From: Candidatus Saccharimonadales bacterium
Lineage (GTDB): Bacteria; Patescibacteriota; Saccharimonadia; Saccharimonadales; UBA4665
Direction: 5' to 3'
Length of the DNA stretch: 64,000 bases
NCBI GenBank assembly: GCA_041649215.1
Contig: JBAZNN010000001.1
Span: 700,366 to 764,365 of the forward strand
In this document: in pieces, positions 4,465 to 57,791 of the stretch
How positions within the stretch are numbered: position 1 is the first letter of the stretch
Layout: each line of letters begins with the position of its first letter
Translations under genes and position numbers: made by a program
Notes under the pieces: generated by a model
Told to the model about the DNA's origin: nothing
Databases searched by the model: none
What the model saw: only the letters and a program-made list of their open reading frames with translations

Positions 4465-6858
4465 CTAATTAATAGAGTTTCCTAGAGTAACGTAGCTCAA
4501 GAAATCATCAGGTACGTCAACGGTATTATTGGCAGATCCACCCATTGAAAGAAAAGTAGAATAAGTAAGTATCTGGTGGGCAGCATTACCCTGGGCATAG
4601 TAAATTAGACCACTAGATAAACGTGCAAACGAAAAGGATTTACTATTTTGCGCAACCGGTAGTGTCCCAAGAAATACATTTGAGAAGCTGCAACGTGCCG
4701 CGGCACCTACCCCCCAGCTTGTGAGCGTTTGCGCCGAAACCGGTATACGTGTCCCACGGTACACTATGTAGGTTGCACCATCCTGCGCCTGGACGAGGCT
4801 TTGGAGGGCAGGCCCCATCACTGCCGAATCGCTGATACGGTACACGTTTGAAGCATCAAATCGGAATGCTCCTAGCTGATCTTGTGAACTGAGCGCACAA
4901 GCGGAGCCATCGATATCACGCAGAAATATCATTTGTTGCTTTGTGGGGTCAGTAAGTTGATATAGGGTTCCGCCGCCGGGAGTGATGTAGGGCGTGGTCA
5001 TGGACATGTTCTGCACCGCATCGCTAATTGCCAAAGGGCTTTTATTAAATGGAGACTTGAAAAAGTCGGCAAGATTATAAAAGGGAGTAATGGAAGACCC
5101 CTGTACTCTAAACAATAGACCAGTAGGCAACCTGAAGGTTGTGCTTGCGTCTACGATAGCCTGCGTAGGTTTGGCATCTATAATAGTGCCTAAAGCATCA
5201 AGCGCCTGCGCAGCCGGCCAGTCACTAGCAACGTTTGTTATATCGTACTTATAGCCCCCACTCAAAACGTACTTTTTTGTACCGCCTGCCGTGCTTACTA
5301 TTGATGGTATGATGCCTGCGGGCGTCGGTGGGGATGACACATAGAGAGACGCATTATCAGTCATAACAACCGAGCTAGGAGCTATAAGTGACCGAAGTAC
5401 ATCATACGAGTTAATCGCATAAAAAGCTCCACCACTGTAAGCGTAAAAAACTGGGCTAGCGCCAAACTTAACGAACGAATTATTCTCAGGCAATGAATAG
5501 CCGATCGGCTGGTTTGAGTTTATGGGACTGGTTACGGGTGTGATATCACTAGCTGTGAAACCGTTCTGCAGCAAGGCCGGGTACGTTAGGAAGGGGCGTT
5601 TGTTCCCCGACTGCATAAGATAAATAGCAGTGCCATTCAGCATGAGTCTCTTTAGGTCACCGCCATTCAGAATGAGGCTGAAAAGGTAGGGGCTGAGGGG
5701 TTTCGTAGTAGCTGTGGTTAAGCACGATGGCACTCCCCAGTCGGCGCATTGTTGTTGGGTAGAAAAGCCAAACCGGTATCCGTTATCAGCCAGATAAACT
5801 GCGCCTTGTCCTTCAACGGTGAATGTCGTCCCCAGCGTACCGCCATCGGTCAATGAGTTCATGTATGTGTCGCTGACGGGTGTCACTTTTGTTTTAGCGA
5901 AACCATAAGCTCTTAAAACGTCATACGAGGGAATCCCATAGCGCGTAGTTCCGCTTTGTAGATAGACTGCTGGACTAGCAGGAGACTGCAGAAGGAAGGT
6001 TCCTGAAGTGCTTCCAAACCAGTCATTAAAATATAACCAGAAATTACGGTTGCCGTAAGCACCACATGGTGGCGCAAGACCGTAACCTGCGGCCAAGGCG
6101 GCAGCGTTTGGTTGGTATGGTGTGTAGTCGTAAAGCGAGGCCGTGGCTTGATTTTGGATATTTAAGTACGACCCACCACAGCTAGACGAGGGGTTGTACA
6201 AGACGAAGTTGCCGGGTCCTGGAACGTAGTTAAAGCTATTCGGATAGTTGGCGTAGTTCCGGAACTGAGCGGCTGCGTGATTAACCTGGTTCCAAAATCC
6301 ATAATATTGAGAATTACACACCGCCGTATCTGGGCATCCGTAGCCGGTGGCTGCCTGGTATTGGTACGCAAATGGCCAATCGTCGGTTACTAATCCTTGC
6401 TCCTTTTGTAGTAAGACAATGAGAACCTGTGGGTTGATCCCATAATAAGTTGACGCTATAGATATTATTTGTGCGGCGCTTTGCGCCCCTGGTGGGATAG
6501 GAGCTGCCTGGCCGCTTACTTTTGTAAGGTTGTTTTCGTGAGTGCTTGGATTTTCGTAGTACCCTTTTAGGCATGTAAGTGGCAATAGTTGACCATTGTT
6601 TGCCGCGTAGTTAGCCCTACTTGTGCTCGTGCTGCCATTGGTTCCCCAGTTATCACACACGGGAACCTTGCTGTTTAAGAATGCCTGAATTTGGTCTACG
6701 GTCATAGACGAGCTGTTGTAAAACACCGAATCATCAATGATGCGCGTTGGATCGAATGCGGCAGTTGAGACCGCATGAACTTGTGGCGTAAATATAATTG
6801 CCAGAGAGCTCAAGGCTATACCAAGAACACCAAACAGCCAGAGGCTACGCTTCATCAC
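4465..6858 (-). CDS. Large secreted protein of unknown function (signal peptide; Cys-containing conserved N-terminal domain, beta-rich repeats)
   Basis: 797-aa ORF. Signal peptide MMKRSLWLFGVLGIALSSLAIIFTPQVHA. N-domain motif IIDDSVF...MTVDQIQAFL...LIVLLQKEQGLV. No catalytic motif that I can name. Confidence 0.75.
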   Translation of the reverse strand: MMKRSLWLFGVLGIALSSLAIIFTPQVHAVSTAAFDPTRIIDDSVFYNSSSMTVDQIQAFLNSKVPVCDNWGTNGSTSTSRANYAANNGQLLPLTCLKGYYENPSTHENNLTKVSGQAAPIPPGAQSAAQIISIASTYYGINPQVLIVLLQKEQGLVTDDWPFAYQYQAATGYGCPDTAVCNSQYYGFWNQVNHAAAQFRNYANYPNSFNYVPGPGNFVLYNPSSSCGGSYLNIQNQATASLYDYTPYQPNAAALAAGYGLAPPCGAYGNRNFWLYFNDWFGSTSGTFLLQSPASPAVYLQSGTTRYGIPSYDVLRAYGFAKTKVTPVSDTYMNSLTDGGTLGTTFTVEGQGAVYLADNGYRFGFSTQQQCADWGVPSCLTTATTKPLSPYLFSLILNGGDLKRLMLNGTAIYLMQSGNKRPFLTYPALLQNGFTASDITPVTSPINSNQPIGYSLPENNSFVKFGASPVFYAYSGGAFYAINSYDVLRSLIAPSSVVMTDNASLYVSSPPTPAGIIPSIVSTAGGTKKYVLSGGYKYDITNVASDWPAAQALDALGTIIDAKPTQAIVDASTTFRLPTGLLFRVQGSSITPFYNLADFFKSPFNKSPLAISDAVQNMSMTTPYITPGGGTLYQLTDPTKQQMIFLRDIDGSACALSSQDQLGAFRFDASNVYRISDSAVMGPALQSLVQAQDGATYIVYRGTRIPVSAQTLTSWGVGAAARCSFSNVFLGTLPVAQNSKSFSFARLSSGLIYYAQGNAAHQILTYSTFLSMGGSANNTVDVPDDFLSYVTLGNSIN

Positions 6859-29644: not shown

Positions 29645-30038
29645 ACGTATCACCGAATATCTGGTAAGCGGCGGTGCTTATTTCTGGTCGGGTTACGGCA
29701 TGTTCTTTGTGCTAGACAAGGGTCTGCACCTAAATTTGTGGTGGGCAAAGTTGCTGGCCAACGTCACCGGGTGGCTAGTGAATTATGCGTTGCAACGCTA
29801 CTGGGTGTTCAATAACCCCAAGTTAGCCAAGCACAAACTGGAGGTTACCGGCCACTACGCCGTAATTACGCTAGCCGATTTCCTGATAGATTATTTGATC
29901 GTGGCCGGGCTTAAGCACCTCGGCATAACACCGTACATTGGTCAGTTCGCCTCGTCAGGGTTCTTTACGGTCTGGAACTATTTTTGGTACAAATTCTGGG
30001 TCTTTCCGGACAAATATCCAAGGAAGAAACGATCATGA
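29616..30038 (+). CDS. GtrA-family membrane protein (polyprenyl-sugar translocation)
   Basis: 140 aa, 4 TM, YLVSGGAYFW...ALQRYWVF...FWVF. GtrA-like signature. Overlaps the upstream gene by 29 nt. Confidence 0.78.
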   Translation: MKQKQKREVKRITEYLVSGGAYFWSGYGMFFVLDKGLHLNLWWAKLLANVTGWLVNYALQRYWVFNNPKLAKHKLEVTGHYAVITLADFLIDYLIVAGLKHLGITPYIGQFASSGFFTVWNYFWYKFWVFPDKYPRKKRS

Positions 30039-30508
30039 ATGAAGCGACGGTTAGACCGACCAAAAAACAGAAAGAACTTCTAGAATTTATCGAGCGATTC
30101 ATAGCCGAGCGGGGCTATAGCCCGAGTTACCGCGAGATTATGGCCGGGCTCAACTATACTTCGGTGGCGACAGTGGCACTGCACGTCGGTAATCTTATAA
30201 AAAGAGGTCATTTAATAAAGCGCGATCACAGTGCTCGTTCACTCGAGGTAGTCAATTCTTCATCGGACGCGGCACCTGGTAAATTGCCCACCAATCAGGT
30301 GGCTCCAACCGACGAAAAATGGCTGGTCGACAAGATCGAATACTTTTTGGGTCAGGCAGAAGCCATGCCACAACCAGACCCACTGCAAGTAGATGATCTG
30401 TATGTGTTGGTTGGAGCGCTGAAAGTCTTGGGACTTGACGGCGCGGCCCAAAGTTTTATGCCGCGTCTCACGGCACTCAAAGCCCGCGGTTTACCACCGT
30501 CGGCTTAA
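30035..30508 (+). CDS. LexA N-terminal DNA-binding-domain protein lacking the S24 peptidase domain
   Basis: Start at MNEATV (ATGA overlap with the gtrA stop). KKQKELLEFIERFIAERGYSPSYREIMAGLNYTSVATVALHVGNLIKRGHL matches the LexA wHTH. The remaining ~90 aa show no Ser-Lys dyad motifs. Confidence 0.62.
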   Translation: MNEATVRPTKKQKELLEFIERFIAERGYSPSYREIMAGLNYTSVATVALHVGNLIKRGHLIKRDHSARSLEVVNSSSDAAPGKLPTNQVAPTDEKWLVDKIEYFLGQAEAMPQPDPLQVDDLYVLVGALKVLGLDGAAQSFMPRLTALKARGLPPSA

Positions 30509-30539: not shown

Positions 30540-31223
30540 ATGTATCAACTTGGTAAGCGGGCTAGGCATCACCAACTGCTCATAGTAGCGGGCGTATTGC
30601 TGGTGCTTGGGGGCATAAGTTTTGGTACGTACAAATTGCTTCACCTGACACTTAGCCCCCTAGAAACCATTACAAACCCACCGGCCAGCACCACTCCGTA
30701 TTCGCCCGAAAAGTTGGCCAATAGTTTCGTAAACGAAACGTACTTTACCACCCAGCTGCCATTTGGCTGGAAGCGAGTAAGCTTTCAGACCTCGCCTAAT
30801 ATCATGTACACCTACCAGGGTGGCAAGGCCAACACCCAGATACTCAGCATATATATAGATAATTTACCCACAACGCTGGCCGTGAACCGGGTGCTACCCC
30901 TGGAGGTTCAGGGCGGCCGGCTGGTGCACGGTACGTTATCCGATAATTGTGTCGATTTTTTGTCACCGAGCATTCTCAATACGCCGCAAGCTCAAACCAA
31001 AAAAGTGGTTGATGCCAAATGGCAAAACGTGGAGTTTTACTGCGATATCGGTAACTTCCAACGAAATGTTACCGGCACTAGCTCGGAAGCGGGCATAAAT
31101 AAACTCGTTTTGGGCGGCTCGACCACTGGTGCGCATAACGTGTTCTTTACCTATACCGATAACGGGTCGAGCCCTGATTATAGTGTCTTCTACAGTGTCC
31201 TAGACAGCTTCAAACTCAAGTAA
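30540..31223 (+). CDS. Membrane-anchored hypothetical protein
   Basis: 227 aa with one N-terminal TM (LLIVAGVLLVLGGISFGTY) and an extracytoplasmic beta-rich domain. Confidence 0.6.
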   Translation: MYQLGKRARHHQLLIVAGVLLVLGGISFGTYKLLHLTLSPLETITNPPASTTPYSPEKLANSFVNETYFTTQLPFGWKRVSFQTSPNIMYTYQGGKANTQILSIYIDNLPTTLAVNRVLPLEVQGGRLVHGTLSDNCVDFLSPSILNTPQAQTKKVVDAKWQNVEFYCDIGNFQRNVTGTSSEAGINKLVLGGSTTGAHNVFFTYTDNGSSPDYSVFYSVLDSFKLK

Positions 31224-31329
31224 AAATTACTATATGTAGCGTGCAAGCCAGGTGCTATGCTACTACTAGCATATCCTACGGATATACTTATCAGTACTCA
31301 GAAAATATGAGCAAGCTCCTATTTTCCTC

Positions 31330-31489
31330 CGTGCTTCCATTATTAACAACATGAGCTGGAAGTGAGCGAAATTCTCACACTGTGCCGCAACGGTTAAAGT
31401 CCGATACAGCTACTAAAAGTCTTCCGAGCAGAAGCGTCTGAAATAGCATTTCAAACCCTCTGCTCACCAAAAGACAGAGGGTTTATTTT
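31330..31489 (+). promoter_or_regulatory. Candidate cobalamin riboswitch (compact class-II-like aptamer 31354-31411) plus RBS-sequestering/terminator-like hairpin (31453-31484)
   Basis: P3 AGCUG/CAGCU. P4 GUGAG/CUCAC with loop CGAAAUU. Junction ACUGUGCCGCAACGGU. P6 CGG/CCG with loop UUAAAGU. A 10-bp hairpin AAACCCUCUG/CAGAGGGUUU covers the SD GAGGG just before the ATG at 31490. Confidence 0.5.
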
Positions 31490-32677
31490 ATGGAAACGTT
31501 GGCCGCGCAGCCGTCACACGAAAAACTAAAAAGCTTTGATCCGCTGGCCAGTGTCGACATGTTTCGATTCGATATTGAGCGCTTTGGTAGGGTGCTGCCA
31601 GAGACCAGATATCGAGTACACGATGAAGAGCTCAGCCACCTAACAGAGGCGGTGGACAGAGCGGCTTGCACTGAATTCATACTGCGTAAGCGGGATGACC
31701 AGATCGAGTATTTTGATAAGGGAAACTGGCGACCATATATCGGCTCTCTTTTAACAGCGCTAGAAGTTGCGAAGCAGGAGGCTACAGAAGACCCCCGTCG
31801 GGCGTTCCTGGCAGAACGAGCGGTAACTGATTTATGGCACGGTTACAAGTTACAGTCATTAAAACCCGGCGAGCAGCACGTTTGGTATTCGCCGTACCCA
31901 AAAGAGGAAGCCGCGAGGTTTGGCGAAGCATTTGTGCGAGAGCTTGGGTTTTCGCCGGAAAGAGAAATGGGCTTTTTATACCGCGCCTACTGTGACGATC
32001 AAGGCGACGTGGTCTTAGAATCACAAACCGTCGATCATAGCGATGACGAGGCTTTTTCCGCGGCTATGAACTTAGCTGAGAGTGACCACGGAACAGATAC
32101 AGACGCACTTGTAAATGCTTACGATGAAACGCTCGCCCAAAAATACGGCGGTAATTTTTATGCCGGTCGACGAGATGCCGAGATCCGTGAAAACGCATGG
32201 AACACGATTCGTGACCAACGGGACCTAGTTGAATATCTACTGGCTAAACTCGAGACTATCGCAAAGCTATCTTTGCCGCGTCACGAACTCGAACGAGCCG
32301 CAAAAAAACATGTTTACGGAGTCTGGGCGCTATTTAAAAAGCGGCTGGACGGTGAAGTTCAAACGTATACTCCGCTTTGGCACGAAGCCATGCCGCTGGC
32401 GCATTTTGCGCTATTAGACCAGCAGGTTATGACGGCCTTCAATGAATTTGCTGCCCGCGGAGCGGTTATGCCAGGTTGTGGTGGTGCTATCCACATGCAA
32501 GGCGAGGAATCTATTCTGGGCGCGGAAGGTAGCGAGGTGTTCAAATCGATTTTCGGAAAAGACGAAGATAGGTATGGATCATTGGAATTCAAATGTCCCA
32601 AAGGACATAACAATCGTCGCCCCCACGGCAAGCTTATCGAAACCTGCCAAAAATGCGGCGTTAGCGTTAGATGCTAA
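31490..32677 (+). CDS. Hypothetical cytoplasmic protein with C-terminal zinc-ribbon-like motif
   Basis: 395 aa, no TM or signal peptide. C-terminus is FKCPKGHNNRRPHGKLIETCQKCGVSVRC. No family that I can name. It is the only gene downstream of the candidate riboswitch. Confidence 0.68.
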   Translation: METLAAQPSHEKLKSFDPLASVDMFRFDIERFGRVLPETRYRVHDEELSHLTEAVDRAACTEFILRKRDDQIEYFDKGNWRPYIGSLLTALEVAKQEATEDPRRAFLAERAVTDLWHGYKLQSLKPGEQHVWYSPYPKEEAARFGEAFVRELGFSPEREMGFLYRAYCDDQGDVVLESQTVDHSDDEAFSAAMNLAESDHGTDTDALVNAYDETLAQKYGGNFYAGRRDAEIRENAWNTIRDQRDLVEYLLAKLETIAKLSLPRHELERAAKKHVYGVWALFKKRLDGEVQTYTPLWHEAMPLAHFALLDQQVMTAFNEFAARGAVMPGCGGAIHMQGEESILGAEGSEVFKSIFGKDEDRYGSLEFKCPKGHNNRRPHGKLIETCQKCGVSVRC

Positions 32678-32696
32678 TTCGCCAGACCAAATTTTC

Positions 32697-34409
32697 CTAA
32701 ACAGCCTCTTCGGCCAGTGATAACGGGTGGTTTGATTCCATTTGTTGCAAGTGGCGGCTGCGGTAACGGTCAAAGTGCTGTCTTTCGATGCCGTTTTTCT
32801 GGATGAGCGCACTCAAGCGCTCGCTGCTGGCGTGATGGGGGATCATCACGTAGCCACAGCCTAGCTCGTATAGTTGCATAGCCTCTTCGTAGCCGTTTGC
32901 ATTGCAGACAACCACGGCATCCGGGTTATAAAAGTTGATGTGCTTGACCAGTTCTTGGTTAGTTTCGAAGTCGCTGATGGTGCTGACTATCAGTTTGGCG
33001 CGCGTCACGCCGACTTCCTCGAGCAATTCGGTGTCGGTTGCATCGCCGTACAGACAGGGTATCTGTTGATGCTGTAGCAGCTCAATTACCGACGGGTCGT
33101 AATCGACTACCAGGTAACGTTTTTTGAGCTTTTGGAAGGTACGCAAGAACTCATGGCCGCCCCTGTGGTAACCGAACAGAACCAGCTCATAACCGGTTCT
33201 GGTCTTTTTGTCGGCGTGTTTGCGCTCGCTATCGAAGAGCCCGTAAAACAACTTCAATTTATCAAAATACTCGAATAGCTGGTTATCGTATTTCATAAGA
33301 TAGGTCGAAGATGTAATAGTGATCAAGGCTACAAGTGTTATGACGGTGCTTAGGTGGGTGCTAATGAGCCCAGTGCTGACCGCCAACACGATTAATACGA
33401 TGGAAAACTCACTAATCTGCGACAAGTTTATGCCGGCCTTAAAGCTAACGCGCTTTGGGTAGCCCAACATGCCAAGTGTGACGGTTACGGCTGCCGGCTT
33501 AAGGATGATAACGATAGCCGAGAGCAGGAGTGCCGGCACCAAAGCGGTATGCGCGTTGGCAAAGCTCAGGCTCTCACCTAGCGAAATAAAGAACAGAACG
33601 ATAAAGAAATCTCGAAGTGGTTTGAGCCTTGACTCAATCTCTTGAGCATAGGGCAGGCCGGCCATGCTGATGCCGGCGAACAGTGCACCAACCTCGATCG
33701 AAAAGCCGGCGTATTGAAACAAGCTAGCTATGCCAAAACCCCAAGCAATAGCAAACAAGAACAGACTTTCTTGACTGGCGGCAATTGTTTTGGCGATTCG
33801 CGGCAACACAAGCTTGCTGGCAAAGATTAAGATAGCAAACAGGCCGACGCCCTTGGCTGCCAGGAGACCCAATGCTTGTAGGCCGATGGCATTGTCTTTG
33901 CCGGCGGCCACAAACAAAAGTGCCAAAGTGGCGATGATATCGTCCAAGATGATAACACCGATAGCAATCTGTCCGTACAGGCGATTCTGTTCCTTTTTGT
34001 CGGTCAAGACCTTGACGATGATAATAGTGCTACTAAAGAACAAACTAAGCCCCACGATGTACGATTCGGTCAGCGAGAGCCCGAGCAGTAGATTGCCCAC
34101 CAGAACACCAATGCTACCTACGGTGACCAGCACCGCGCCAGACGTTATAAAGATAGACTTACCGACGCGTCGGATAACACCGAGGTTCATACCTAGGCCG
34201 ATGATCAGTAGCAGCAGAGCGATGCCAATGCTCGAAAAGCTGGTGAAGGCGTCTTTGGAGTGAATCAAGTGTAGTGCCGATGGTCCAACAATAATGCCGG
34301 TTATGATGTAGCCGAGAATCAGAGGCTGGCGAAACAGGCGCATTACCAACGACACCAGCGTTGCGACGACGATGACAAGACTTAGTTCAGTAAAGGCGGT
34401 ATCGAGCAT
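32697..34409 (-). CDS. Cation:proton antiporter (CPA2, KefB/KefC-like) with C-terminal RCK/TrkA-N domain
   Basis: About 12 TM segments of the Na_H_Exchanger type (GYIITGIIVGPS), then the Rossmann-like LVLFGYHRGGHEFLRTF...YGDATD. Confidence 0.88.
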   Translation of the reverse strand: MLDTAFTELSLVIVVATLVSLVMRLFRQPLILGYIITGIIVGPSALHLIHSKDAFTSFSSIGIALLLLIIGLGMNLGVIRRVGKSIFITSGAVLVTVGSIGVLVGNLLLGLSLTESYIVGLSLFFSSTIIIVKVLTDKKEQNRLYGQIAIGVIILDDIIATLALLFVAAGKDNAIGLQALGLLAAKGVGLFAILIFASKLVLPRIAKTIAASQESLFLFAIAWGFGIASLFQYAGFSIEVGALFAGISMAGLPYAQEIESRLKPLRDFFIVLFFISLGESLSFANAHTALVPALLLSAIVIILKPAAVTVTLGMLGYPKRVSFKAGINLSQISEFSIVLIVLAVSTGLISTHLSTVITLVALITITSSTYLMKYDNQLFEYFDKLKLFYGLFDSERKHADKKTRTGYELVLFGYHRGGHEFLRTFQKLKKRYLVVDYDPSVIELLQHQQIPCLYGDATDTELLEEVGVTRAKLIVSTISDFETNQELVKHINFYNPDAVVVCNANGYEEAMQLYELGCGYVMIPHHASSERLSALIQKNGIERQHFDRYRSRHLQQMESNHPLSLAEEAV

Positions 34410-56432: not shown

Positions 56433-57791
56433 ATGGAGATATCACCCCCCAATCGTTACGAAGCGACCACGCCTGACAAGCCGGAAGATAAAAAGACAAA
56501 GCGCAAAAAGCGCACCGGTAGTCATGTATTAAACGCGCACCTGACTAGTGAGCCGAAGAAACTAATCAACCCCAAAGAGTCAAAGCCTATAGACGCGACG
56601 CTGGCCGAGCTATTGCTGAAGAAAAAACAAGACAAGGAAGAGGTTGCAGAACCCGAAGAGCCGGTCGCGACTGAAAAAACCGAAGTTGTCCTGACGGAAG
56701 AGGTAACCCATGAGCTACGACCCGACCAACTATATGTCGGCGAGGGGATTCTGCAACTAGACGAAGCCGAGGTCGAGCACGAGATACCGCTGCGGACGCC
56801 GGAAACTGAGACACCAAGATCGTACGAGCGGTGGTTTGATGAAATAGTATTGCCAAGGAATGAACCGGAAGAAGCCGCAACTCTAGCGCCAACCTATGAG
56901 TCGGTGGCCAATTATACAGAGCTGTCGTCAATGGATAGCCAGGAAACCAAACCGCCGGTCACTGCGCACGAAGTTGAACAGCCAATACCAATAGTCCAAC
57001 CAGAAATAACTCCAGTTGAACGAGCCGAACGCGTTGAGCAGGGTTGGGCACAGACCAGCCCGGTGGCTATCGAGCAACCAGCTACCAAAAAAGAGGTTGA
57101 TGACGCATTGCATGCGGTCGAAAAAGCTGGCCAAAACCGTGGTCTTCTAACCGGTTTAATGGTTGGTGGTGGCTATGAGCACCTCAAGCACAAACATCGT
57201 GAAAAGAGGCAGTCAAGGGTTTTTGAGCACCAAGAGAAGCGCTCAAAGTCTCAAGAAATCAGCCAAAATGAACTATGGCATGAGTTTGACAAAGAAAGAC
57301 AAACTACTCAGGTGGAACTCAACCGCCTAGATAAACGTTTTGAACAGAATCGATTCGAAAATAAACCGGAAAAAAAACCAGAAGCCCCGCTACCAGAGGC
57401 CCCCGAGCAACCAGAGCTACCAGCCGACCGGCGGGTGGAAACCAGCGCTTGGCACCGGATTGAGCTCGATGTCAAAACTGGCAAACCGGTTGATAAGCCG
57501 ACGCTCGAATATGGTCGGGAGTATTACCGTGAGCGCCAACAAGAGACCGCTCCGCTCGACACCGACACCACCGCCGCGGCCGGCGAGATCGCCCTAGTAG
57601 CGGCAGCGTTAGGTAAATCGAGCCCTCAGAGTGCGCTGCCGAATATCCCAAGCGCGGCTACTCAAAAGCCAGTTGGACCAACTGTTCTGGTGCGGCCTGG
57701 CCTTAACAAAGTTGCACCAGCCGGTCCACTTTGGCCCTACGTTGTCACGTTAATTATCGTCGTTATCGCGCTTATTTTTGCTCTGCGTTAG
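56433..57791 (+). CDS. Highly charged, low-complexity protein with C-terminal TM anchor
   Basis: 452 aa, Glu/Lys/Pro-rich. C-terminal WPYVVTLIIVVIALIFAL. Confidence 0.55.
   Translation: MEISPPNRYEATTPDKPEDKKTKRKKRTGSHVLNAHLTSEPKKLINPKESKPIDATLAELLLKKKQDKEEVAEPEEPVATEKTEVVLTEEVTHELRPDQLYVGEGILQLDEAEVEHEIPLRTPETETPRSYERWFDEIVLPRNEPEEAATLAPTYESVANYTELSSMDSQETKPPVTAHEVEQPIPIVQPEITPVERAERVEQGWAQTSPVAIEQPATKKEVDDALHAVEKAGQNRGLLTGLMVGGGYEHLKHKHREKRQSRVFEHQEKRSKSQEISQNELWHEFDKERQTTQVELNRLDKRFEQNRFENKPEKKPEAPLPEAPEQPELPADRRVETSAWHRIELDVKTGKPVDKPTLEYGREYYRERQQETAPLDTDTTAAAGEIALVAAALGKSSPQSALPNIPSAATQKPVGPTVLVRPGLNKVAPAGPLWPYVVTLIIVVIALIFALR

Follow-up and report, generated by a model that had tools for sequence, protein, structure and literature searches.

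Predicted cobalamin riboswitch in the leader of an orphan protein gene of Saccharimonadia

The 64-kb stretch of contig JBAZNN010000001.1 (Candidatus Saccharimonadales bacterium), hereafter the window, i.e. the whole 64,000 nucleotides that were analysed, possesses an intergenic gap between an open reading frame (ORF) with its stop at 31223 and the next ORF, starting at 31490. No ORF of at least 40 amino acids lies within this gap, in line with the original prediction on this DNA, which had described it as free of ORFs. The 5' leader of the gene that starts at 31490 (nucleotides 31340-31489) constitutes, with a probability of roughly 0.85, a cobalamin (vitamin B12) riboswitch in which a kissing contact between loops L5 and L13 would gate the sequestration of the Shine-Dalgarno (SD) sequence, the gene being switched off in the presence of B12. 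From 5' to 3' the leader contains a compact aptamer, a small hairpin (P13) and a perfect 10-bp hairpin that holds the SD-like element, followed by a gene annotated as 'hypothetical protein'. The features are listed in Table 1.

Table 1. Features of the leader, of the regulated gene and of genes and leaders at related loci. Positions refer to the window unless a locus is named.
Feature	Position	Strand	Basis
Cobalamin aptamer (RF01689 AdoCbl-II)	31340..31416	+	cmscan, 44.2 bits; lineage model R1, 90.6 bits at 31354-31437
Four-way junction core P3-P6	31354..31411	+	structural register and covariation
P3 AGCUG / CAGCU	31354-58 / 31407-11	+	read from sequence; covaries
J3/4 GAA	31359-61	+	read from sequence
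P4 GUGAG / CUCAC, L4 CGAAAUU	31362-66 / 31374-78	+	read from sequence; covaries
Junction ACUGUGCCGCAACGGU	31379-94	+	read from sequence
P5 UGU / GCA, L5 GCC (31384-86)	31381-83 / 31387-89	+	register of aligned leaders
Putative L5 kissing-loop strand UGCCG	31383..31387	+	invariant in 30 leaders; complementary to L13
P6 CGG / CCG, L6 UUAAAGU, no extension	31391-93 / 31401-03	+	read from sequence
J6/3 AUA	31404-06	+	register of aligned leaders
Long-range pseudoknot-type pair, J4/5 (after P4) with last base of L6	A31379 - U31400	+	A-U 20, G-C 7, G-U 1, never unpaired
P13 hairpin, stem CUUC (31421-24) / GAAG (31431-34), loop L13 CGAGCA (31425-30)	31421..31434	+	loop invariance and stem covariation
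Anti-sequestor (ON) pairing GAGCAGA (31426-32) with UCUGCUC (31459-65)	31426..31465	+	duplex -12.4 kcal/mol
SD-sequestering hairpin, perfect 10 bp, AAACCCUCUG (31453-62) / CAGAGGGUUU (31475-84), then AUUUU (31485-89)	31453..31484	+	sequence and folding
SD-like GAGGG, 8 nt between SD and start codon	31477..31481	+	sequence; G-rich SD likewise in the 3' arm of the hairpin in orthologs
Regulated gene, 395-aa soluble protein of an uncharacterised Saccharimonadia family	31490..32677	+	invariant GCGG motif, C-terminal zinc-ribbon-like Cys/His cluster
16-bp palindromic NrdR-box-like site TTACTATATGTAGCGT	31227..31242	.	overlaps -35 region of putative leader promoter
Putative extended -10 element TGCTATGCT (TGnTAnnnT)	31252..31260	+	predicted from sequence
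Window-specific extra leader, about 70-80 nt, between promoter and aptamer	31261..31339	+	box-to-core distance 153 nt vs about 80-83 nt in orthologs
LexA-like protein, LexA DNA-binding domain, no peptidase S24 domain	window 29984-30508; L006 4108-4791; L008 1043-1642		family match
227-aa upstream gene, no Pfam/NCBIfam family	30540-31223		syntenic in about ten loci, 31-43% identity
Cys-rich ~90-aa protein (CDxCMxYP..HGHFMCPxC..KCCEG), no Pfam/NCBIfam family	L003 5206-5394; L005 7202-7435; L006 7237-7512; L008 7251-7430 and others		
P6-extended leaders	L026 4668-4923; L023 3726-3916		core identical

The Rfam search that the original prediction had proposed (cmscan, whole window, both strands) returned a single match at gathering level, RF01689 (AdoCbl-II), which scores 44.2 bits (cut-off 36.5) at an E of 2.4e-7 and covers model positions 1-81 of 81; the family belongs to the cobalamin clan CL00101. 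By this score the RNA is a member of the cobalamin-riboswitch clan; the class is a known one, and the regulated protein is the novel part. On rereading the sequence from 31100 to 31700, P3, P4, P6, the junction, the SD hairpin and GAGGG were all located where they had been predicted, and the B12-box-like AGUCCGAUAC is present as described. P3 is flagged as non-canonical in the register of cmscan itself; the register of the original prediction pairs and covaries. A peripheral extension of P6 is absent from the window, where L6 comprises just 7 nt.

Loci with homologs of the regulated protein were gathered by protein similarity alone, 15 of them from species-representative genomes (all metagenome-assembled genomes (MAGs) of Saccharibacteria/Patescibacteria, with the exception of one 'uncultured bacterium' record) and 19 from metagenomes. 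The core motif CUGUGCCGCAAC is found upstream of the homolog in each of the 30 loci that contain 5' sequence, hence a universal gene linkage, and the proteins encoded there are only 35-57% identical to that of the window. A lineage covariance model built from the curated alignment detects a single copy in the window and, wherever a locus includes 5' sequence, one in front of the homolog; furthermore, it detects the copy that precedes nrdAB in locus L008, which was outside the training set (49.9 bits, E about 5e-11). Rfam gathering thresholds catch 11 of these 31 instances: RF01689 is called in the window, L001, L003, L022, L025 and at a second site in L008, RF00174 (the classic form) in L009, L011, L014, L018 and L021, with scores of 31.6-34.8 against a cut-off of 31.5. 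The P6 extension varies from 0 to 171 nt among leaders that share one core; it is 12-171 nt long in 25 of the 30 leaders and missing from the window and four others. Because P6 lengths are intermediate and the 11 detected instances are split over both models, the lineage falls between RF01689 and RF00174.

The alignment used for covariation contains 30 rows and 81 columns, its elements being anchored on invariant motifs, because a plain MAFFT alignment set four rows one column off in P3. Removed from it were the P6 extensions, the linkers between P3 and P13 and, in four or five rows, a single additional unpaired base of the junction; paired bases were left unaltered. For P3, P4, P5, P6, P13 and one long-range pair, 96.8% of the cells are paired across the 30 leaders, 15 of 21 pairs show changes on both sides, and 102 cells are compensatory. 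The covariation score amounts to 0.508 compared to 0.172 for shuffles, and none of 500 shuffles reaches the observed value, a count that is no probability because the sequences are related; unaffected by relatedness is the control in which the 3' partners were slid by 1-3 columns and pairing fell to 30-45%. Changes on both sides occur in 4 of 5 pairs of P3, 4 of 5 of P4, 1 of 3 of P5 (one swap of U-A to A-U) and 1 of 3 of P6, which alternates between CGG/CCG and CUG/CAG with 8 sequences switched. All four stem pairs of P13 covary (CUUC/GAAG, CUCC/GGAG, CUCU/AGAG and others). The compensatory changes that had been named as a check for P3, P4 and P6 are thus present, in P5 as well, and together with the RF01689 score they sustain the proposal of a compact, class-II-like cobalamin riboswitch.

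The long-range pair (A31379 - U31400), which had not been expected, covaries too; it is pseudoknotted relative to P6 and absent from the Rfam consensus structure displayed by cmscan.

A chance resemblance, or a decayed riboswitch relic without function, is effectively refuted by conservation and covariation: the RF01689 match has an E of 2.4e-7, the RNA is kept in 30 of 30 loci despite the low identity of the proteins, and the compensatory cells number 102.

Original prediction and present analysis differ with respect to L5, for which an L13 partner had been reported as not found. The hairpin at 31421-31434 is a candidate for this partner, its loop CGAGCA being complementary to UGCCG of L5 over 5 bp with one bulged A (CG[A]GCA). 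P13 starts after a 9-nt linker 3' of P3. Among the 30 leaders, 29 have this loop unchanged, and the hairpin recurs with an identical loop in the L008 switch that precedes nrdAB. In published work the consensus of L5 is given as UCCCG; the class conserves unpaired nucleotides where L5 kisses L13 and needs them for function, and a short linker between P3 and P13, 7 nt in env8HyCbl, is optimal. The complementarity of the two loops suggests the kissing contact, which stays an inference because both L5 and L13 are invariant.

The expression platform of the window contains the SD in the 3' arm of the second hairpin. Sequestration of the SD is general, as had been proposed for the window: 25 of 26 related platforms have it paired within the hairpin. 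Of the 26, 8 have a clearly U-rich tail behind the hairpin and 18 lack one. Pairing of the 3' half of P13 is stronger with the downstream region of the same locus than with those of other loci (cognate -11.15 vs non-cognate -10.16 kcal/mol, permutation p = 1.5e-4, 24 non-redundant loci), and in 8 loci the resulting anti-sequestor helix is the minimum free energy (MFE) structure of the platform alone. The two states of the window platform are nearly isoenergetic, with -19.3 kcal/mol for ON (anti-sequestor) and -18.8 kcal/mol for OFF (P13 plus SD hairpin), and the ON pairing is the MFE structure of every transcript that ends before the 3' arm (truncations 31466-74).

This arrangement shares its logic with the corrinoid riboswitch of Priestia megaterium metE, where it was established by mutagenesis (PMC10327014); for the window it is proposed. 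In both, a P13 stabilised by a kissing loop, putatively so in the window, has a 3' side that pairs with a downstream 5' side to give the anti-terminator or anti-sequestor, and P13 is weak, the alternative helix being the more stable one; in the window, the downstream 5' arm can base-pair with the 3' side of P13, and the helix so formed does not fall below P13 in stability. The metE switch differs in possessing a classic long aptamer and a pure terminator, whereas the type found in the window almost always holds the SD in a hairpin and has a U-tract in some loci only.

According to the proposed mechanism, binding of cobalamin would let UGCCG of L5 kiss CG[A]GCA of L13 and thereby lock P13. The 5' arm of the SD hairpin would then be free to pair with its own 3' arm, hiding the SD and turning the gene off; in versions with a U-tract, the bound state may also terminate transcription. 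Without cobalamin, P13 would not be held, GAGCAGA would pair with UCUGCUC of the SD hairpin, and formation of this anti-sequestor would expose the SD for translation of the gene. Binding of the ligand, kissing of the loops and the direction of the switch (OFF with B12) are the inferred components of this scheme.

Several observations weigh against it. Covariation is uninformative for the kissing loop, since L5 and L13 are both invariant, and the sole variant of L13 (CGUACA in L022) is not compensated in L5. The difference between cognate and non-cognate pairing is small, about 1 kcal/mol, and uncorrected for phylogeny, and complementarity of P13 to the downstream arm is weak in L003, L007, L010 and L022. 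The unconstrained MFE structure of the whole leader has the SD hairpin formed, and therefore the ON state would rely on co-transcriptional kinetics. Finally, the leader of the window has an unusual extra 70-80 nt.

Output of the switch could instead consist mainly in transcription termination, the 10-bp hairpin and UUUAUUUU forming an intrinsic terminator and the burial of the SD being incidental. The stem does stand between AAA and UUU and is followed by AUUUU, U-rich tails occur in the 8 platforms mentioned, the nrdAB switch of L008 has a clear terminator (CCGCCUCGAGGCGGUUUUUU) well upstream of its SD, and the experimentally tested metE model is transcriptional (PMC10327014). As the main output this is unlikely, with 18 of 26 platforms devoid of a U-rich tail and the SD yet inside the hairpin in 25 of 26; neither did a consensus terminator scan call the hairpin, the loop of which is 12 nt long. 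The scan, which covered 31000-32900 for terminators and promoters, did not call a leader promoter either and is uninformative. Since 25 of the 26 platforms hide the SD but just 8 have a U-rich tail, translational sequestration is regarded as the conserved output and termination as an optional addition. The two are not mutually exclusive, and the SD hairpin of the window may be an intrinsic terminator as well.

The original prediction had offered another coupling of aptamer and SD hairpin, in which the loop CUCAC(C) at 31463-68 competes with the 3' strand of P4 for GUGAG at 31362-66. The identity of 5 nt is real in the window, with a duplex of -5.7 kcal/mol, but the P4 helices of orthologs vary freely without a matching change downstream, the hairpin loops of orthologs are unrelated in sequence, and cognate pairing is not preferred (-4.64 vs -4.38 kcal/mol, permutation p = 0.17). 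This coupling is very improbable, and pairing between P13 and the 5' arm of the SD hairpin is preferred as the link.

Two further platform types occur next to that of the window. In L019 (4268-4287) and L020 (4984-5003) P13 abuts the start codon (CUCUCGAGCAGGAGCACAUG), and its 3' strand GGAG is itself the SD; judged by analogy, these two would represent env8-like direct sequestration by the kissing loop inside the same orthologous family. The riboswitch of nrdAB in L008 (1855-1935) has the P13 loop UCU CGAGCA AGA and a second CGAGCA motif in front of the strong terminator. As this terminator lies well upstream of the SD, the same type of aptamer is coupled there to a purely transcriptional platform.

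Similarity to env8HyCbl and RF01689 comprises the compact four-way junction without a P6 extension, the conserved J3/4, L4 T-loop and J6/3, and a short single-stranded linker (9 nt in the window, 7 nt in env8) leading to a P13 that could kiss L5 with a bulged nucleotide. The proposed likeness to env8-type class II aptamers holds in the missing P6 extension and in the RF01689 match; it does not extend to the ribosome-binding site (RBS), as the SD GAGGG is outside L13, in a separate hairpin, 43 nt downstream of P13. The env8 arrangement of an SD within P13 is shared by L019 and L020 but not by the window. Other differences concern L5, which is GCC/UGCCG in the window vs aCCU in the RF01689 family, the orthologs, which carry P6 extensions and match RF00174, the host, a bacterium of the candidate phyla radiation (CPR), and the regulated gene, an orphan.

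It is possible, if held at somewhat below even odds, that the aptamer derives from the classic Cbl-I-like lineage sensing adenosylcobalamin (AdoCbl), having lost its P6 extension, rather than being a true env8-type aptamer selective for methylcobalamin or hydroxocobalamin (MeCbl/HyCbl), so that the Rfam label would not predict the ligand. Orthologous leaders with the same core are extended in P6 by 12-171 nt, in five of them the threshold passed is that of RF00174 and not of RF01689, UGCCG of L5 is nearer to the clan consensus UCCCG than to aCCU, and the RBS of the window is not in L13; moreover, NrdJ, which uses AdoCbl, would be the likeliest B12 enzyme in such cells. Opposed to these points are the best score of the window, obtained with RF01689 over the full model, its lack of a P6 extension (L6 of 7 nt) and the marginal RF00174 scores of the orthologs (31.6-34.8 vs 31.5). 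Because the RBS is outside L13 and the lineage is mostly P6-extended, ligand preference is not to be read from the name of the family.

The regulated protein lacks a P-loop and has about 130 homologs of 41-57% identity, of which the named sources are Saccharibacteria/Patescibacteria MAGs. An exhaustive profile search of 1.84 billion representative proteins expands the family to 326 relatives of about 380-460 aa. No Pfam or NCBIfam family matches the protein even at E = 10, neither sequence nor profile searches find a relative in the PDB, and ten distant members of the family do not contain a Pfam domain. AlphaFold (AF2) models from 22 and 117 sequences reach a predicted local distance difference test (pLDDT) of 80.7 and 87.3 and a predicted template modelling score (pTM) of 0.70 and 0.76, respectively; Foldseek searches of the PDB (best E 0.27 and 0.52) and of BFVD gave no significant neighbour for either model. 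LasR/GAF-like Foldseek matches were rejected (probability at most 0.3, template modelling score (TM) below 0.35). Without a relative in Pfam, NCBIfam or the PDB and without a significant Foldseek neighbour, the regulated gene is an orphan in sequence as well as in structure. Its homologs share a conserved N-terminus, ME-LAEQP...KSFDPLASV, which supports the ATG at 31490 as start codon.

A peculiar feature is present at the other end of the protein in 18 of 117 homologs, which terminate in LAA (ALAA, VLAA, KLAA) on otherwise dissimilar C-terminal extensions (alignment A4; e.g. P0025, P0056, P0077, P0092). Such ends resemble the terminus of the ssrA tag recognised by ClpXP, which hints at proteolytic control. 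The window protein ends in SVRC and does not possess LAA.

Gene order around the riboswitch is stable and consists of GtrA, a LexA-like helix-turn-helix (HTH) protein, sometimes the 227-aa protein, box and riboswitch, the orphan gene, often the Cys-rich protein of ~90 aa, a NadD-like protein and, in convergent orientation, a Kef-type antiporter. Throughout Saccharimonadia the LexA-like gene keeps its place directly 5' of the riboswitch locus. Roughly half of the loci have the Cys-rich gene 3' of the orphan gene, frequently with stop and start codons that overlap, and the NadD-like nucleotidyltransferase gene after it; the window has neither of the two.

Elsewhere, the switch fronts genes with an accepted B12 logic, namely class I ribonucleotide reductase (RNR) nrdAB and DUF4430. 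Locus L008 possesses one riboswitch before nrdA and nrdB and a second before the orphan gene, and its nrdA passes the NCBIfam equivalog NF005101 with 1297 bits vs 988. In L006, L023 and L024, genes for a DUF4430 protein and a DUF6580 membrane protein are inserted between riboswitch and orphan gene, with gaps of 15-18 nt or overlaps, which indicates that DUF4430, DUF6580 and the orphan gene form one operon. DUF4430 is the transcobalamin beta-domain family, a domain found at the C-terminus of transcobalamins; PDB sequence searches with DUF6580 and DUF4430 gave nothing significant, the top match of DUF4430, itself not significant, being transcobalamin-1. In the window, a search for the other B12-linked genes (nrdA/B, DUF4430, DUF6580, Cys-rich, NadD-like), including Pfam on the ten largest other ORFs, did not find any of them.

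A B12 riboswitch in control of a class I RNR that does not itself depend on B12, the situation of L008, is described for the nrdABS operon of Streptomyces (Borovok et al. 2006, as cited in PMC13584703), and as that citing text has it, repression of class I RNR by B12 is established in organisms that also have a B12-dependent RNR. The orphan gene thus appears as a constant member of a B12 regulon to which, at other loci, RNR and probable B12 uptake also belong. The odds are about even that the orphan family is an obligate member of a B12/deoxynucleotide regulon, acting either as an unknown cytoplasmic cobalamin-handling enzyme or as a new B12-independent substitute for a B12-dependent function. 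In the first case it could be, e.g., a non-orthologous adenosyltransferase, reductase or chaperone serving a B12-dependent RNR, which fits the DUF4430-DUF6580 operon of three loci; the second could apply as well and fits the riboswitch and the NrdR-like box held in common with nrdAB.

This box, a 16-bp palindrome, occurs once in the window and once per locus, with the consensus ATACTATATSTAGCGT over loci. The copy of the window, TTACTATATGTAGCGT, matches 6 of 6 highly conserved positions of the NrdR box (C4, A6, A8, T9, T11, G13), as defined for the 16-bp partial palindrome in PMC13584703. Of 31 leaders, 27 have such a box, among them the one of nrdAB in L008, and its usual position is about 80-83 nt upstream of the aptamer core. 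Because a putative extended -10 element follows 11-13 nt 3' of the box, where TGCTAnnnT is conserved in the aligned leaders, the box would overlap the -35 region. In L008, the riboswitch-controlled nrdAB genes have a TTGACA-N17-TATAGT promoter, and a box of the same type (1721-1736) comes shortly after it. The nrdABS operon of Streptomyces likewise combines its riboswitch with a palindromic promoter box of NrdR type and NrdR control, according to the same citation; in contrast to it, the doubly controlled gene of the window is an orphan and not an RNR, with one strong box instead of a canonical pair.

Canonical NrdR operators consist of two boxes 15-16 bp (or 26-27 bp) apart. Candidate second boxes are weakly enriched (at least 4 of 6 matches at start offsets +30/+33, in 4-7 of 25 leaders), and in the window one with 4 of 6 matches and a 14-bp linker was read by eye. 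With Escherichia coli NrdR as query, an NrdR gene was not found in the 359 kb searched, which include only a part of the 805-kb genome, so that this search is uninformative, and the syntenic LexA-like protein is a rival candidate for binding the box. With a weak second box, no NrdR gene in the sequence searched and a rival binder, the box as an NrdR operator is a lead, not a finding.

Between promoter and aptamer, the extra leader segment of the window folds into two small hairpins. A non-conserved upstream ORF of 15 codons (ATG 31307 to TGA 31352-54) extends into the aptamer, its stop overlapping the first base of P3. The segment was considered as a repeat element and rejected, being repeated neither elsewhere in the window nor in the other loci. 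The remainder of the window is dominated by genes for cell-envelope polysaccharides (WsaF-like, Wzy_C, sugar transferase, GtrA, GlmS-like, PGM/PMM) and includes two large ORFs without a Pfam family, 797 aa at 4465-6858 (-) and 452 aa at 56433-57791 (+).

For Saccharibacteria/Saccharimonadia, a literature search returned nothing about naturally occurring cobalamin riboswitches, the use of B12 or the regulation of RNR, and it returned nothing on DUF6580. For Rfam, the lineage marks a blind spot between RF01689 and RF00174, with 11 of 31 instances detected and P6 extensions of intermediate length; the orthologous leaders, with and without a P6 extension on an identical core, represent a natural series useful for determining how this extension affects the selectivity for ligands. 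For a protein family whose sequence and structure are otherwise opaque, the link to the riboswitch, seen in 30 of 30 loci, is the sole functional clue and renders the family directly testable; interest is raised by the universality of the link to a structural orphan and by an apparent dual control in common with RNR genes. Environmental Saccharimonadia, CPR episymbionts with reduced genomes under about 1 Mb, would sense cobalamin via a riboswitch and respond by controlling class I RNR, the DUF4430/DUF6580 pair, putatively for uptake of B12, and an orphan protein. Such control suggests a dependency on B12 that bears on the ecology and cultivation of Saccharimonadia.

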